The notes under the pieces are model-generated. The model did not search any database, was not told the origin of the DNA, and saw only the letters and a list, made by a program, of their open reading frames with translations. Both the position numbers and the translations under genes were made by a program. Positions 28,564 through 40,571 of a stretch of 64,000 nucleotides of DNA are shown here, in pieces; the first letter of the stretch is position 1, and each line of letters begins with the position of its first letter. The stretch is from Lophium mytilinum (Eukaryota), in assembly GCA_010093605.1 (NCBI GenBank), contig MU004194.1, positions 720,323 through 784,322 of the forward strand, in the 5' to 3' direction.

Positions 28564-30516
28564 ATGGCGACTGTTTCAATCCCCCCTCACTTGCGATACA
28601 AAAAAAGCGCGACGAACCCAGCTCCGACGGCCTCCAACAATCCGCCTCCAGCCGGCACGACCGCAGCGTCCAAGGGCATCACTAATGGAGTTGCTCCCTC
28701 TGACCAGCCCAAGCAGCAGGCTAAGCAGTCTACGCCTGCAGGCTTGACCCAGTCACGATACGCAGTTGGCGGCGCGGTCAAGAACGTACCCGAGTAAGTT
28801 CGAGATCTTCATCATACCTTCCCCCTTCACACATGCAATTTTGGCTGATGCGGTCATAGACAACCTCCAAAGAAGGATAGCGCGATCAGTCTGCAGGCTC
28901 TCCCGACTCCGCCCGTCAGTCCAGCACAACCAGTAGCTCCTCCAGCCGCGTCGTCTCCGGTTCCTACGCCCAATCCGACTACAAATGCGGCTGCCGCCTC
29001 TCCGGCTAAAGCGACTCGTGTTCCTCCGGCCAAAGCAAATCCTGTTGCTTCTGCTACCGCGGCCCCGGCCTCTTGGACCAACACGACTCCTGCGCAGAAT
29101 GGTGGAGCGAAAAACGGGTCATTCAATTCGCCATGGCAAGGACGCGCGACAAACCAGGGCCCCAGGCCGCGAGCGGAGCGTTTCCCCAAGTCCAAGGCGA
29201 TGCGACCACCAACTGATGAAGAAAGCGACGGAGGAGTTTCGTTCAAGTCGGACAGTAACGGCGACCCTAACCATGACATTCGCAAGCTTACGGATTGGGA
29301 CGGCAATTGGTTACCAGCTCCTATAGAGTGGGAGGGCAGACGTGGATTCTCAGACCGCAACTTTTCCAGCCGTGTCGAGGGCTGGATTGTCAAGACCGAG
29401 AAGTCCTATCGAAACCTGGAGATTATAGACACCAGTGCTCCCAGATTCTTGTCTCAAGATAATGGAGATGTTGCGCCTAGGGTCTGGATTCCGCAAACGA
29501 TCGACGCTGAGTCTCCGGGAGCTTTCTGGAGGACTTATCAGTCGCGAGCACCGCCACCCATGTCAGACTTTGATCCGGACGACCTTCCTTGGTGGGAGAA
29601 GTACGAATCACCAACATCGAGCCTGCTGAAGTCTATCGAAGTTCCCAATGCATTTCTCGACCGTGAGGATCCTACGTACGCGAAAGCACAGCAAGACAAT
29701 GGCGCTGTGGGAGCGATCAAGAGACGCGAGCATCTACTGAAGGCAAAGCACGCCAGAACGGCTGCCAAGAGAAGACACCAGCTAGCAGAAAGCAAGGCTG
29801 CCGCAGCGATGTACGCTGATCACCCAGAACCACCTGACAACAGCCTCCATCCGAAGGGTAATATTTTCGTGCGCCCAGCTTATCCCGCCGACATGGAACA
29901 AGTCCGGGACATCTACAATCACTATGTCATGCACACCATTCAGAGTCCAGAGTACGAGCCCCGTACCCGAACCCATATGGTCAACCGAATCACGGATATT
30001 ACCAATAACCACCTCCCTTACATCGTCGCCATCGACAGGTCTCACAAAGGTCCCAATAGTGGGCTCAGGCATCTCCCGGAACGTATTGTTGGCTTCGCAA
30101 ATGCTGACGACTACTGCCACCCCGGTTCCATGTATCGCTTTACCGTGGAGATGGAGCTTTACGTCCACCCTGAATACAGCCACAAAGGTGTCGGAAGCTG
30201 CTTGTTGGACAAACTTCTCGACCTCCTAGACAACGGGTACCGCGCACGAGGGGGGTACGACTGGTACGCGAAGCCAGACTACAGATCAGACGGCCAGCGC
30301 GTTGTGAAGACAGTCAACGTGCAAGTCCCGTACGACCACAACAACACCTATGTTATTGAATGGATCAAAGCATGGCTCAAGGCGTTTGGCTTCAAGGCTG
30401 CCGGAGATATGTACCGCATGGGCTACAAGAACAACACCGTCATCAACGTTGCTATCTTCCAGTTCGCCACAAGCGAGTTCATCGACCCGCGCGAGCGTCC
30501 CAGCAACCCACTGTAA
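28564..30516 (+). CDS. GNAT-family (phosphinothricin acetyltransferase-like) protein with a long disordered N-terminus (intron 28794-28859; in-frame upstream ATG at 28204)
   Basis: VRPAYPADMEQVRDIYNHYV, IVGFANADDY, YRFTVEMELYVHPEYSHKGVGSCLL (acetyl-CoA-binding motif A), KAFGF. Start aacATGg gives MATVSIPPHLR. Confidence 0.85.
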
Positions 30517-31433: not shown

Positions 31434-31910
31434 ATGTCTTCCCGAACCCCCCTACGGTTAGATCCTGGCACACCCTTCACAATCAAGGTCAACTATAACG
31501 AAGAGGACCAACCCGGGCAGCACGGCGAATTCATTTTCCAGGTCGAGCCATCCAGCCTCGCACCCGAAGTTCGCTGCTCTCATCTCAAAGGCGGGAGCAC
31601 AAACTGTGAAAGTGGTACATGCTATTGGTGGTTGCGCGGGGCATCCCTGTTCTATTACGCGACGACTGCGGTGATCTTTGAGTGCGAGAACAGAGCGTGT
31701 GCGGGCCATCCAGGTCGCTTTAGGAGGTGTGATACAGACCAGTCATTGATCTTCATGGGGAAGGATGCGGATCCTGATAAGTTGAGGAATCAGGAGTGGA
31801 AAGAGCATAACATTTATTCATATGAAGATGGTTCTGGAAATGAGAATTTGGACGCGACGATCAAGGAGGTCAGGGCCGAAAGAGACATGAGGAAGATTGC
31901 TGCGCCGTAG
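31434..31910 (+). CDS. Hypothetical 158-aa Cys/His-containing protein
   Basis: Single-exon ORF with normal amino-acid composition, C/A-rich leader and G/T-rich trailer like neighbouring genes. Family not recognised. Confidence 0.6.
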   Translation: MSSRTPLRLDPGTPFTIKVNYNEEDQPGQHGEFIFQVEPSSLAPEVRCSHLKGGSTNCESGTCYWWLRGASLFYYATTAVIFECENRACAGHPGRFRRCDTDQSLIFMGKDADPDKLRNQEWKEHNIYSYEDGSGNENLDATIKEVRAERDMRKIAAP

Positions 31911-32464
31911 GAGGTCGAGGGGCGAAGGAGGGGAAGAGGGAGGAGTTTTGGGATTAGCGAGTGGGCTTTGTGTTGGAGTTGTACAGGGTTTGAATATTCG
32001 GTCCTGCGAGTTGTGGAGGATTGTCTGGTTTTGTTTCTGAATGGTGGTTTAGGGGTGCATGTTTTTCTTTTTCTACATATGGCTACTAGATTATGTGATT
32101 GGTCTATTTTACACTACTACAGTCGAGAATAGCCCCAGTAGCTCGTGCTCTTGGTACCGATGTAAATATTGTTTTCTCGGTCCTTCGCAAATGGTTTCAC
32201 GTCAGTACTAAGCCAGCGACTTTACGCATCAACCCTTCCCAACTCAACTAGCTAAGTGAAGGCGGATCAAGGTGCAACGCAGATTCCTCTGCGATAAGGT
32301 GAGGGAAATGAAAGGACTGTTTCAACAGGAGAGTCAGACTTACGAGATTCTATTGGTCTTATACAGCCGAGGAGACGCGGAGGTAGCTTCTCTCGCTAGG
32401 CATGAAAAAAGTGGCACACTCATCAAGATCTGTTTCTTGTGGTCGTGTGTACACCTATCTACCA

Positions 32465-33232
32465 ATGCTTAGAGTACTTCAACAAGTTTCTAGATAGCCC
32501 ACAGCTGAGACGTTCTACCTCTTCTATATTCAACAGGCTGTATTAAAGCACCTAAACAGCGGCAGACAAGTATATAAGGTGTTTGCTTGGTTCTTAAGCT
32601 ATCACACCCTAGCAGAGGAAGAGATCAATCTACCCGTCCCTACTAGTCATCCTGCCAAGACGGCGCTCGTCAAGATAGACCATAGAGCAACTCTAGGCAT
32701 AATCAGAACAGCAATTACTAATAGAGCGGACAACGTTATCTAATCCTTATTCTATAGCCGGCCAGTGGGTATAAAGGACATTGCTACGATTAGCGGCGAA
32801 TGTAAAGACCCACAATAGGTTATATATGCGAACTCTCTCTGCTCGGAAACAGGAGACGGACTCTAGCTATACGGGGTCCGCCGGACGGAATTCAGCATCA
32901 CGGCCGTACAATCATGGGTTCCGGGCGCGATCAACTCAGCACAGAAGCTCTATGACTTTTGGCACGATCACAACGCCACTCCGTGCCTTGTCAAGTTGGT
33001 CGTCTTTGACGGCGAGCTGGTATCCGAGGTCGTATTGCGGTTAGCGGAGACGCTAATGATGCTATTGTTGTGCTTACTAGCGATACCGTTCATATACTCT
33101 CTCCCCGAGTGTCCGGATTGGGTGGCGCGGTCAGGCCCTCTTCCATGGACGCAACTTAACGACAATTGGCCACTCTATCCTCTCGGTTTTGATACGGGGC
33201 GTGAGCAGAGCGGGACTGCCAAGCTAAGATAA
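32465..33232 (+). pseudogene. RIP-type pseudogene of unknown family
   Basis: One frame of 256 codons from ATG 32465 with only four internal stops, all TAG/TAA (32495, 32741, 32816, 32864), each one C>T from a Gln codon. TpA-rich. Confidence 0.5.
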
Positions 33233-34399
33233 AGTATCCGTGGTGAATTCACTATTCGTGTCTACGGGAAATGCACCCATATCGCTATTGGTGAGGCAAG
33301 CCCGTTCCGGTTCTTCTACCGGTCGTGCGAAAGTACAATCTCAAGATTGGAGACACCGTACACTTGTCTTAGTTGTTTAACAATCATGATGAATCTCGTT
33401 GATGGGCGCTAACGGCTATAAAGGAAGACAAGTCCTTTACCTTCAGCATTAAGCTAATGTGTGCCGGCGGTAGCGGATGGTTGCACACTATGTCAAGAAA
33501 GATTGAACAACTCAATGACTTCGTTACCAGGCTCTAAGCGCCGAATTATGGGGTGTCAGCAGCGCATTGCACTAGTCTTATATTTTTCCTTTCTTTTGGG
33601 TAGTTCACCAGCATCTTGGCATTGAGCACTAGATAAATATAGTCCAGACGAGCATAATAGTAGCATGTAACTTACGCAGATGCAATATGTGTAGCAATAA
33701 ACTTAGTTACCAGTCTAAACTTGAGATGCATTGTTCCCGCAAAGCAGCTATTCGATACACTCGTGAGACCCTCGCGGACGTACGATAAGCTGGAGAATGA
33801 GATGTCAAAGGGCCAAACATTGTGAAATGAACCATGGCTTGGGGAGTAGTCATATATTCTACCAAGTTTTTGATCAAGGACGTAATTACAACGTGTTAGA
33901 GTAAGCGCACTACTACACTCGGAATACTCGTGAGACTCTCTTGAACGAACGATAAGCTGCAGAATGCGATGTTGAGGGCCGGACGCTGTGGATGAAGCAT
34001 TGCTTGTAGAGAGGAGCGATCTGCACGTGGAGCAATGCCGAACATCACGTGCCACTGGGTCGGTTTAGCGCTGTTTTAGCTGTTTCGAGCTCCATCGACT
34101 ATGTTCCAACATCAGTCAGCTGCAGTACTTCCCACTCGCCGCTCCGCTGCTCCCGTCACTGCTCCTTCATTGCTCTTTCACTGCTCCAACCTCTCTGCTT
34201 GCGTGCATCTTTTCCAGCACCTCAAAGACTGCTGTTAACAGCTTCGTGTGCCCCGCACTTCGTCACATCAACGTAGCCTTCTACACGCGCAGCCGTCCAT
34301 TTGCCACGATCTCCAGCTGTACAACGCCCCGTGGGAGTAGGCAAGCTGGGGAAGAGAAGGATTTCGAGTGAGGACCTTGGTCGTCCACTCAAGAAAGCT

Positions 34400-37300
34400 A
34401 TGACAGTTCGTATACTCGTTGCTGTTTCCCAGTCTTCACCCTAGGGCTCTGCCTAGGCACCGAGCGTATATTAAGCACAGCCTAGCCCGCAGAGGCTTCC
34501 TCCTCTACACACCCTTCAAGTCCGCCCGCATACTACATTATGACCAGCGTACTGACAAATTTGAAATCGTTGCAGGACTCCATCATGCAGGTCGACAGCC
34601 CCGCTGCTGCCGCCGAGCAGCTGAGAGCTGCCGACGGAGAGATCGACGAGTCTCTCTACAGCAGACAACTCTACGTGCTGGGGCACGAGGCCATGAAGCG
34701 TATGGGGTCCTCCAACATCCTCATCGCGGGGCTCCGAGGCCTCGGCGTGGAAATCGCCAAGAATATCGCACTGGCCGGCGTCAAGTCCCTGACTCTCTTC
34801 GATCCGAAACCTGCCACTATAGCCGACCTTTCTTCTCAGTTCTTCCTGCACCCAGAGGATGTGGGCAAGCCTCGAGCCCAAGTCACAGTCCCCCGCGTCT
34901 CCGAGCTGAATCCCTATACCCCTGTTCGAGAACACACAGCCGCAGACCTCACGTCGGATTTGAGTCTGCTGAAACAATACCAAGTCGTGGTCCTCACGGA
35001 TACGCTGTTAAGAGACCAGGTCAAGATCGCTGACTATTGTCACGAGAATGGCATCTACGTCGTCATTACGGATACATTTGGGCTTTTTGGAACAATCTTC
35101 ACAGATTTTGGCAAGAACTTTACCTGTGGGGACCCCACGGGCGAGCAGGAGCTGAATGGCATTGTGGCCGACATCGATTCCGAGGGATTGGTGTCTGCGT
35201 TGGACGAGACCAGACACGGTCTAGAAGACGGCGATCATGTCACTTTTACTGAGGTGCAAGGCATGGATGCTCTTAACGACTGTGCACCCCGAAAGATTGA
35301 AGTGAAAGGACCCTACACCTTCTCCATCGGCGATGTTTCGGGGCTCGGAACATACAAGCGCGGAGGACTGTACATCCAAAAGAAAATGCCAAAATTCATC
35401 GACTTCGAGACGATGAGCAAGCAGCTAGCCAAACCCGAATTGCTGATCTCGGATTTTGCCAAGTTTGACCGACCTCAACAGCTTCATGTCGGCATCCAGG
35501 CTCTCCATGCCTTCGCGGAAAAGCACAATGGAGAGTTTCCAAGGCCCCACAACGAAGACGATGCCTCAGAGGTCTTGAAAATTGCGTCAGGCTTAGCAGG
35601 TGAAGGAGAGGACAAGGTTGAATTGGACGAGAAACTACTAAAAGAGCTCAGCTATCAAGCCCGTGGCGACCTCACACCTATGGCAGCCTTCTTTGGCGGT
35701 CTCGCGGCGCAAGAGGTGCTGAAGTCCGTCTCCGGAAAGTTCCACCCAATTGTGCAATGGCTGTACTTCGATTCCCTCGAATCTCTGCCAGAATCCACCC
35801 CACGCTCCGAGGAAAATTGCAAACCACTTGGAACTCGTTACGACGGCCAGATTGCAGTCTTCGGAAAAGACTACCAGACCAAGTTGTCAAATGTCAAGCA
35901 ATTCTTGGTTGGAGCCGGCGCGATTGGTTGTGAGATGCTCAAGAACTGGGCTATGATGGGGCTTGCTGCAGGCCCGGAGGGCAGGATATCCGTAACGGAT
36001 AACGATAACATTGAAAAGAGCAATCTGAATCGGCAATTCCTCTTCAGGCCTAAGGATGTGGGCAAGTTGAAGAGCGACTGCGCTGCTGAAGCAGTCCAAG
36101 CGATGAACCCAGATCTGAAAGGCAAGATTGTGACCATGCAGGATAAAGTCGGACAAGAAACAGAGCATATTTTCAACGAGGATTTCTGGGAAGAGCTCGA
36201 CGCGATTACAAACGCGTTGGACAATGTCGAGGCCCGTACTTATGTTGACCGACGATGTGTCTTCTTCCGGAAGCCTTTGTTGGACAGCGGCACACTTGGA
36301 ACGAAAGGCAACACCCAAGTCGTGCTGCCCAATATCACCGAGTCGTACTCGTCGTCACAGGATCCTCCAGAGCAATCATTCCCAATGTGCACGCTTCGAA
36401 GCTTTCCCAACCGTATCGAACATACCATCGCATGGGCTAAGGACCTCTTCCACGCCTTCTTCGTTCAGCCGGCGGAGGTGGTCAACCTGTACCTTACGCA
36501 ACCGGGTTATCTTCAGGCTTCTCTCAAACAGTCAGGGAACGAGAAGCAGACTTTGGAGACGCTTCGCGATTTCTTGGTTGTCGACAAGCCACTGACCTTT
36601 GACGATTGCATTATTTGGGCGCGAATGCAGTTCGAAAAGCAGTACAACAACGCCATCCAACAGCTACTTTACAATTTCCCCAAGGACTCCACCACGTCCT
36701 CTGGACAGCTGTTCTGGTCGGGACCGAAGCGAGCCCCTGACGCATTGAAGTTCGACCCTTCGAACCCTACGCACTTCCTGTTCGTCGAGGCTGCTGCTAA
36801 TCTCCATGCTTTCAACTACAACATCAAAGCAAACAACGTCAGCAAGCAAACATACCTGGACGTTCTCGATGACATGATCATCCCAGACTTCAAGCCAGAC
36901 CCGGGCGTCAAGATTCAAGCTAGCGACAATGATCCAGATCCAAATGCTCAGCAGTCATCATTGGACAACGACAACCAAGAGCTTTCGAATATTGCCAACA
37001 CTTTGCCCCCTCCAAAGTCGCTCGCTGGGTATAAGCTCGAGCCAGTCGAGTTTGAAAAGGACGATGACACAAACCACCATATCGACTTTATTACAGCGGC
37101 TAGCAACCTGCGTGCCGAGAACTACAAGATTGTGCAGGCTGATCGACACAAGACCAAGTTCATTGCCGGAAAGATCATTCCAGCAATTGCAACTACTACT
37201 GCTCTTGTGACAGGTCTCGTCAACCTTGAGCTCTACAAGATCGTGGATGGGAAGACAGACATTGAGCAGTACAAAAACGGTTTCATAAACCTAGCTCTTC

Positions 37301-37731
37301 CGTTCTTCGGCTTCAGCGAGCCAATCGCGAGCCCGAAGGGCACGTACACTGGCACCAATGGAGAGGTCCAAATCGATAAGCTGTGGGATCGCTTCGAGGT
37401 TGAGAACGTCACGCTGAAGCAGTTCGTGGATGACTTCAAGGCGAAGGGTCTTGATGTCCAGATGATCAGCTCCGGCGTCAGCTTATTGTATGCTTCCTTC
37501 TACCCGCCGGCCAAATTAAAGGATCGTCTAGTCCTCCCGTAAGTGATCTCATGCTTTTTATCAGTAAAGATCAAGTGCTAACCAAGGAACAGACTGAGCG
37601 AGCTCGTCGAGACCATCAGCAAGAAACCCATTCCTTCTCACCAGAAGAACGTCATCTTCGAAGTCACAGCAGAAGACACGACAGGCGAGGACGTCGAAAT
37701 CCCCTATGTCATGATGAAGCTACGGAAGTAG
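34400..37731 (+). CDS. UBA1: Ubiquitin-activating enzyme E1 (exons 34400-34405, 34576-37538, 37593-37731)
   Basis: [37 protein letters not shown], catalytic [37 protein letters not shown]. The last intron restores the UFD C-terminus (EDVEIPYV). The 6-nt first coding exon is inferred from splice signals. Confidence 0.97.
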
Positions 37732-39106: not shown

Positions 39107-40571
39107 TCATGAGACCTGTCTCGCCTGGACCACAACCTCGTCCTTTTCATGCGACTGTCTGGGTGGCGGGGGATATGGCATCTCCTCGCTTACCTGCTCG
39201 CTCCTAACAGACACGTCTCGTTGCACCGTGATGCCACGTAGGATGTGATCTTGGCTTTCGGTTTTCCTGAGCTCGTGGTGATGCCCCACTGTTGTGAAAC
39301 TCTGGCCCAGCATTTTGCCGTCGTGGTTCCGTGTGGACTCCATGTTCTCGAGTCCATATTCCGAGAGTCTCTGGCTACCGACTCCAGGCGCTCTCCGCGC
39401 ATTGCTGCCGTACCCGTATGCGTATTGTGAGCTCTTGCTCTTGCCCACAGAGGAGAGCAGGCCTGGAAAGCACGCAGATGCTGCTTTGCGAAGACTGATC
39501 AGACAGGCGCATATCAGGCCCATCGCGGCCTCGATGAAGGACCATAGGTTCGTTGTACATGAGTCCCACGGTTGGTCAACCGCGTGAGTGGACTGCACGA
39601 GCGCTTTCATGCGAATGGCCGTTGTGATACAGACGAAGAGACCCAGCGTGAATAGGATCATCAAGCCAAGTTTCTTAGCTAGCGTCATCTGTAGGCGTCC
39701 GATCACGGGTAGCGGAAGTGTGAAGACGAAGATGTCGCTCAAAAGATCTGTTTGTAGGTCAGTCTTCATATTCGAGGTCAGCAGATCGTCCCACTCACTA
39801 AAGGCGGCCCAAGTCCACCTAGGAGTAGCATTAGCACAGTGTTCTGATGAAGACCGATGGGATAAACTCACCGGAACCAGCTGTTGTTAATGCAATGACC
39901 TGGTACATTTGCCTTGTTCCACGACTTGCGGATCGGCGTGCATTGAAAGATCGTCGCAATAACGAAAGCAAAGCTGCCCAGTACTATAACAGCGAGCGTC
40001 GCCCGGCATATCTTGCGGAATAGGGGAGTCGAGAACACTCTGAGATAGAGTAGCAAGAAAGCCAGCTTGTTGAAGGTGATGTTCACTTTGTAGAAAAGCT
40101 GAGAAAGGAAGTAGTACTGCAACATACGTCAACGACACGCTTATACGCATCTAAATTCAGTCACTTACTTTCAACGCAGTGTGAACGTTCCCGCCCATCT
40201 TCGGTATGTCTTTAGTGTGATGACCAAACCCGTACTGCGCAGCTAGATGGAAAGTCAGCAAAGGAGATTCGAGGTGTACGGAGACTTGATCAACCGATCA
40301 GCGCGAGATAGCAATACTCTGAACATACCCAAATTCAATATAATGCAGAAGCCTATCATGACAGCCTTCAGTTGGTCAGTCCAGTTGCAAGAGCGAAGTT
40401 ACAGCGTATTTCTCTTACGTTAGAGCAGATGACCATTGCCTCTTCGAGACCCAAAAACCCTCTGTGTCGCCATACTGTGAACATGCGGGCTGCAACAAGA
40501 ACCGTTGCAATTACAGTCAGAGCTATGGGCACAGCCCGTAGGTATTTGTCTTGCCCAGGAAAAGCGTCCAT
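39107..40571 (-). CDS. PTH11-like integral membrane protein (fungal rhodopsin domain, no CFEM), multi-exon
   Basis: VIATVLVAARMF, YGFGHH, KLAFLLLYLRVF, TIFQCTPIRKSW...GHC, DIFVFTLPLPVIGRLQM..KKLGL..LF.LGLFVC, WSFIEAAMGLICACL. Confidence 0.9.

Follow-up and report, generated by a model that had tools for sequence, protein, structure and literature searches.

The ubiquitin-activating enzyme E1, encoded by UBA1, stands at the top of all ubiquitin conjugation. Non-AUG start codons that add a targeting extension to a protein are known from yeast ALA1 and GRS1, and from the CUG-started nuclear forms of FGF2. In Cryptococcus, ArgRS (AUU) and LeuRS (ACG/AUU) are described as having non-AUG extensions that add a targeting signal (PMC7049704), and in Pezizomycotina the near-cognate starts of the cpc-1 gene are described as conserved, position -3 being A and position +4 being G (PMC5487733). 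For E1 itself the closest described system is mammalian, where the first 11 residues of UBA1a are reported to hold a nuclear signal together with phosphoserines and UBA1b arises from a downstream AUG (PMC4596250). Here we describe UBA1 on the plus strand of a 64,000-nucleotide (nt) stretch of the Lophium mytilinum genome (contig MU004194.1, positions 720,323 to 784,322; hereafter the window, in whose numbering all positions are given). A CUG-initiated extension of 18 codons before the annotated AUG is well supported by comparison with related loci, and we put at about 0.7 the probability that a long E1 from the CUG and a short E1 from the AUG allow this one gene to supply both nuclear and cytosolic enzyme.

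A candidate CUG start codon on the UBA1 mRNA

The first AUG of the gene, followed by ACA, closes exon 1 at 34400..34405 and begins the short isoform; models of relatives are annotated from this point, with M-T or M-A. Upstream, the same frame is closed by a TAG at 34274..34276 and is open and free of ATG from 34277 to 34399. An open frame of 41 codons is by itself within chance, as by our arithmetic approximately 14% would stay open at three stops per 64 codons, and the significance of the extension comes from the comparison with relatives. The proposed start codon of the long isoform is a CTG at 34346..34348, in the context GGCAAG CTG G (34340..34349; ggcaagCTGggg), where -3 is A and +4 is G; the consensus of the 21 sequences compared below is G-c-C-A-A-g CTG G-G. 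From this codon the frame reads G, KRR, a 10-residue spacer, KK, A and then M-T, giving an N-terminal extension of 18 codons (34346..34399) with KRR at 34352-34360, a conserved serine at 34364-34366 and KK at 34391-34396. CTG 34346 and ATG 34400 are thus two in-frame starts that flank the KRR..KK segment. An initial annotation of this DNA had pointed to the TAG at 34274, the open ATG-free frame, the CTG and its context, the peptide, the first intron and the ATGs around it, and all are present where it placed them.

Transcript evidence came from Logan contigs of four public runs aligned to window positions 33900-34900. A contig of 3521 nt from one run (X1), 100% alike to the window, covers 34110-34405 joined straight to 34576-34900, with adapter letters preceding 34110. 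The RNA label of this run is a guess only, and we argue that it is cDNA because the intron has been removed; contigs of this type give no exact 5′ end, rare isoforms or expression levels. The joint 34405>34576 was also found in two runs (X4 and X5) of a close relative, organism C, bringing the total to three runs, which confirms intron 1. Before the CUG, the UBA1 mRNA thus has a 5′ leader of at least 236 nt (34110..34345) that is free of AUG in all frames, the closest upstream ATG being at 34101 (offset -245), beyond the start of the contig. Because this leader reaches to 34110 or further, and is colinear and AUG-free, CTG 34346 lies on the mRNA. The initial annotation had left room for a transcription start downstream of 34346 or for an upstream AUG exon spliced into this frame; the transcript contig begins well before the CUG, and its colinearity over 34110-34405 rules out such an exon.

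Organism C differs from the window at 14 sites within 34167-34303, while 34304-34405 is free of differences, a split that an even spread of these differences would produce with a chance of about 0.002 (our arithmetic). Exon 2 shows six differences, each of them at the third position of a codon.

Conservation of the extension in filamentous ascomycetes

A scan of metagenome contigs yielded 80 UBA1 loci; we examined 25 of them that had an identity of 58% or more and upstream DNA that could be used. We set aside L050 (a duplicate of L016), L021 (a near-duplicate of L006) and the yeast-like L020 and L045, and we kept L044, in which the peptide is present and the start column is unclear, outside the counts, which therefore refer to the window plus 20 loci, or 21 sequences. 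Loci without a 5′ end were L011, L018, L028, L035, L038, L041, L043, L047, L053, L076 and L078. The same small exon was present in all 21 Pezizomycotina-like loci, encoding L-G-K-R-[RK]-x-S, an acidic/proline stretch, K-K, one residue and M-T, in most cases with GT directly after M-T. It was not found in the yeast-like L020 and L045, nor in a regular-expression scan of 19 distant loci of 41-60% identity, which included yeast-, fission-yeast- and basidiomycete-like sequences, some of them with less than 120 nt of upstream DNA.

The start column holds CTG in 16 of the 21 sequences, and TTG, ATG, GTG, ATT and CCG in one each. The 16 leucine codons counted at this column are all CTG, whereas within these genes CTG makes up only 12-34% of the codons for leucine; multiplied together, these fractions give 10^-10.6 if the loci are taken as independent, a figure that is overstated as the sequences are related. 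The flanking positions are conserved as well (A at -3 in 19/21, A at -2 in 20/21, G at +4 in 17/21), conservation starts abruptly at -6, and information content over the full set is near zero further upstream. The serine codon after the first basic cluster has T at +18 in 17/21 and C at +19 in 18/21. Mean entropy by codon position over the first nine codons after the start is 0.95/0.83/1.58, a three-base periodicity, against 1.80/1.70/1.78 upstream in the same frame; the ratio of non-synonymous to synonymous differences (pN/pS) is 0.97 upstream but falls to 0.56 within the extension; and in-frame stops number 0 in 371 extension codons and 16 in 630 upstream codons, with a stop five codons ahead of the CTG in L008 and six codons ahead of the GTG in L019. 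The first AUG has a purine at -3 in all 21 sequences. Among the leaders, the Eurotiomycete-like mRNA-type contig L009 carries a six-codon AUG-started upstream open reading frame (uORF; L009:143-163) 181 nt before the CUG, and most other leaders are ATG-free within approximately 170 nt of the start.

The initial annotation had proposed a hidden CUG-started extension that gene callers would miss, and had named conservation in orthologues as the check. The frame and its basic residues are indeed conserved, and across filamentous ascomycetes the CUG recurs together with its context and with the KR..KK peptide, showing substitution of the coding type. This pattern is the signature by which conserved non-AUG starts were called in cpc-1 of Pezizomycotina (PMC5487733). 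As described there, N. crassa (Neurospora crassa) cpc-1 and its homologues in the same clade have conserved in-frame CUG, AUU and ACG codons flanked by A at -3 and G at +4, a stop-free frame to the main AUG and purifying selection in the main frame. The cpc-1 extension is approximately 180 residues long and interacts with uORFs, whereas UBA1 is a different gene with a short tag and, in this class of fungi, one conserved codon.

Public gene models extend the comparison to named taxa. Most of 359 models gathered by three protein searches begin at the exon-1 AUG (M-T/M-A) or at the next AUG (M-Q-V-D), and others have different predicted starts. Among the models that read through the exon, the peptide appears in Leotiomycetes (Lachnellula, Chlorociboria, Drepanopeziza, Hymenoscyphus and Pseudogymnoascus), Sordariomycetes (Claviceps and Metarhizium) and Eurotiomycetes (Aspergillus, Penicillium, Histoplasma and Cyphellophora). 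An ATG occupies the CTG column in the model of Cladosporium fusiforme and, at the DNA level, in L012, where C at -3 makes a weak context that would permit leaky scanning; in Zymoseptoria tritici the methionine of the model is one residue off the CTG column.

A second near-cognate codon in other fungal classes

Seven non-Dothideomycete loci from three other fungal classes (L005, L006, L009, L030, L040, L014 and L016) share an invariant in-frame ATT in the context C-A-n-C ATT C, 12 codons (36 nt) before the CTG column. The interval between the two codons is coding-like, with entropies of 1.07/0.97/1.66 and a pN/pS of 0.59 versus 0.95 further upstream. The upstream ATT is probably a second and older near-cognate start, and AUU and CUG may both serve as starts in these fungi. 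Dothideomycete loci have stops in this interval. In the window, the block conserved with organism C opens with CCACGATCTCC (34304..34314, plus strand), which by motif comparison, at low confidence, resembles C-A-n-C ATT C; its ATC at 34308 and the CTG are not in the same frame, which leaves the CUG as the candidate start in this fungus.

These upstream signals bear on the possibility that what is conserved in the 5′ leader is a non-coding element, acting through protein or RNA binding or translational control, in which the open frame is incidental. The block conserved with organism C does begin at 34304, 42 nt ahead of the CTG, the C-A-n-C ATT C motif is conserved upstream in other classes, and translation of the extension is itself something that we infer. 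The three-base periodicity, the lowered pN/pS and the lack of stops argue for a coding role, as do the ATG that one lineage has at this column and the occurrence of the peptide in annotated AUG-started proteins. A search of 33900-34700 against Rfam was negative at E <= 1, which also counts against such an element, and we consider this explanation very unlikely. A hairpin that might aid recognition of the CUG was not found when positions +4 to +60 of 16 loci were folded (mean z of -0.15 against mononucleotide shuffles), and this lack of excess folding likewise speaks against a non-coding element.

Proposed mechanism and the nuclear-signal reading of the peptide

We propose that the UBA1 mRNA carries a long AUG-free leader on which a minority of scanning ribosomes would start at CUG 34346, in its strong context, and produce an E1 with 18 extra N-terminal residues comprising KRR, the conserved serine, some 10 residues of acidic/proline spacer and KK. 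Other ribosomes would scan on to AUG 34400, 54 nt downstream and with a purine at -3, and produce the short annotated form. The most likely role of the extension would be nuclear import, as a signal of the bipartite type that the neighbouring serine may regulate, so that one gene would provide nuclear and cytosolic E1 in the way that mammalian UBA1a and UBA1b do with two AUGs.

The resemblance to the mammalian system is of several kinds. It concerns the same enzyme, with a short N-terminal basic cluster beside serines in the longer form only and a downstream in-frame AUG for the shorter form, as far as the mammalian arrangement is set out in PMC4596250. The N-terminal region of the human UBA1 chain reads KKRR-V-S-G-P-D, close to the fungal K-R-R-[LI]-S-G-E-[DE], and a motif of KRR, hydrophobic residue, S, G, any residue and acidic residue is thereby common to both; the match is short and is no test of homology. 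The HMMER alignment that pairs the human chain with the fungal N-terminus was discarded as such a test, being ungapped, driven by the downstream IDE-x-LYSRQLY block and in a different register for the tag. Unlike mammalian UBA1, in which both starts are AUG and the longer form is set apart by 40 residues, the fungal gene has CUG as its upstream start (ATT or ATG in other lineages) and an extension of 18 residues before the first AUG, and its isoforms and their localisation are predicted.

Peptide patterns were counted by eye on the 21 peptides. In its strict form the classical bipartite consensus comprises two adjacent basic residues, a spacer of 10-12 residues and at least three basic residues among the next five. 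The initial annotation had called the window peptide a bipartite nuclear signal, and this stood in part: KRR, the 10-residue spacer and KK are present, so that the two adjacent basic residues and the spacing agree with the consensus. Across the 21 peptides the basic clusters lie 9-13 residues apart, and 19 of them fit a relaxed pattern with two basic residues among the five. On this basis and that of the mammalian precedent, and provided that the extension is translated, nuclear import is the role that we favour for the peptide, with some reserve.

Several observations weigh against the two-isoform reading as a whole. The CUG is not universal, since the start column holds CCG in L040, where K-P-G is read as it is in Aspergillus affinis and Penicillium angulare, and holds Q, R or P in Claviceps models; the upstream ATT may be the main start in the non-Dothideomycete loci; and the 21 sequences are related, so that the counts are not independent events. 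The second basic cluster of the window peptide has two basic residues out of five and misses the strict bipartite consensus, which is matched by only 5 of the 21 peptides (L001, L002, L003, L006 and L014), and most peptides also miss the monopartite pattern K-K/R-x-K/R. Yeast Uba1 is described as mainly nuclear (PMC4544378), and, as the yeast-like L020 and L045 lack the exon, E1 can enter nuclei by other routes. The upstream near-cognate starts of N. crassa cpc-1 are reported to give less than 1% of main-AUG activity in vivo (PMC5487733), for which reason the long form may be scarce. Finally, CUG initiation, the share of ribosomes that use the CUG and nuclear import are all steps that we infer.

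Some of these points would suit an extension that is translated from the CUG and has a role other than nuclear import, for instance as a kinase site, a motif for partner binding or degradation, or a nucleolar or chromatin tether. A [KR][KR]-x-S pattern lies near the N-terminus in 17 of the 21 peptides and its serine codon is conserved, the strict bipartite and monopartite patterns are mostly absent, and yeast Uba1 is described as nuclear (PMC4544378) while yeast-like loci have no such exon. However, the second basic cluster is likewise conserved at its fixed spacing of 9-13 residues, and in the closest functional precedent, the N-terminus of mammalian UBA1a, a nuclear signal and phosphoserines are reported together (PMC4596250). 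A kinase site and a nuclear signal are also compatible with each other. Such a kinase-regulated or other binding motif is the main rival; we regard a role that excludes nuclear import as unlikely, and retain the nuclear import signal as the preferred reading of the peptide.

N-terminal basic clusters were also seen on more distant E1 sequences. The mRNA-like contig L062 (L062:1-226), from a distant eukaryote with 45% identity, encodes P-P-S-K-R-Q-K-T in frame directly before the first methionine, and may represent another E1 with a basic tag before its first AUG. AUG-started N-terminal basic clusters were noted in the distant E1s P0132, P0242 and P0159 and in L026, L027, L029 and L034 (39-54% identity), with an internal M-T shortly ahead of the core in P0132 and P0242. 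Basic tags at the N-terminus of E1 seem to be widespread among eukaryotes. We offer, tentatively and as a speculation, a wider scheme in which the tag (basic cluster, adjacent serine and acidic tail) would be an ancient E1 module that fungi share with animals, placed in filamentous ascomycetes behind the near-cognate start codons AUU and/or CUG. Nuclear E1 level would then be set by how stringently start codons are chosen (eIF1/eIF5 levels, stress) rather than by transcription, and the lineage of Cladosporium and Zymoseptoria would have switched to leaky scanning past a weak AUG.

Gene structure and alternative transcripts

The identity of the gene as UBA1 is clear from its translation, whose best protein match is 100% identical and bears the NCBI name E1 of Lophium mytilinum (P0002). 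The product of exon 2 carries the full E1 domain set in Pfam (ThiF, E1_FCCH, E1_4HB, UBA_E1_SCCH and E1_UFD), and a HMMER search against solved structures also matched the translation to yeast and human E1. All parts of the gene lie on the plus strand. Intron 1 (34406..34575) is a GT..AG intron of 170 nt, GTTCGT...TTGCAG, with a TACTGAC branch site, and is followed by exon 2 with the E1 core (34576..37538), which is assigned by translation, Pfam and the identity to P0002. Intron 2 (37539..37592; GTAAGT..CAG, 54 nt) was placed from the sequence and from homology to the C-terminal consensus, and exon 3 (37593..37731), placed by translation, ends in a TAG at 37729-37731.

Two isoforms could also come from alternative transcripts, without leaky non-AUG initiation, either through an intronic promoter near TATATTAA, which lies inside intron 1 at 34467-34474, or through intron retention with use of the in-frame ATG at 34540, within the intron, or at 34585, the second AUG, in exon 2. 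These elements all exist, and the initial annotation had suggested such a promoter. It gained no support from the contigs, which in three runs showed the spliced form alone, although rare forms are lost from contigs and others cannot be excluded by them; absence of contig cover in intron 1 is likewise uninformative on an intronic promoter. A transcript started in the intron would lack the extension and leave its conservation unexplained, and many public models begin at the AUG that closes exon 1. We therefore consider this explanation highly improbable, and initiation at both CUG 34346 and AUG 34400 of a single mRNA remains our reading of the locus.

Two features of the public models were noted in passing. 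P0002 begins M-Q-L-R-A-A-D-G, with 10 residues of the window frame gone (34591-34620), so that its start implies a predicted 30-nt GT..AG intron within exon 2; it also omits the exon-1 AUG. As the transcript contig runs colinear through 34591-34620, the model looks wrong. Many NCBI models of 1360-1480 amino acids (P0365, P0367, P0398, P0404, P0438 and others) join UBA1 to glutathione S-transferase domains (PF13409 and PF13410), and are probably merged neighbouring genes.

Around UBA1, open frames were found at 28849-30513 (plus strand), with a GNAT acetyltransferase domain, and at 39110-39886 (minus strand), with a fungal rhodopsin domain; no gene was recognised from approximately 31900 to 34100. 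Two copies of a segment of about 80 nt (ACTCGTGAGAC...GATAAGCTG.AGAATG.GATGT), seen by eye at 33755-33835 and 33920-34000, sit in this gene-poor interval, 100-350 nt before the start of the transcript contig.

Relation to known non-AUG extensions and significance

The arrangement proposed for UBA1 resembles that of ArgRS and LeuRS in Cryptococcus, where an upstream near-cognate start in strong context is described as giving one mRNA two destinations (PMC7049704). The fungal non-AUG cases on record add mitochondrial presequences and not a nuclear signal, and E1 is not among them in the literature searched. Full-text searches returned no description of a non-AUG start or an N-terminal nuclear signal for a fungal E1, and the same literature does not describe how fungi supply E1 to the nucleus. 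Both the non-AUG mechanism and the two-isoform E1 of mammals are known; a fungal case that combines the two appears not to have been described in the literature searched.

If the proposal is true, the start of UBA1 would be incomplete in many public models of filamentous ascomycetes, including those of plant and human pathogens and model species. An essential housekeeping enzyme would join the few fungal genes for which conserved non-AUG starts are listed, and would provide a nuclear-targeting counterpart to the known mitochondrial examples as well as a natural reporter of start-codon stringency.

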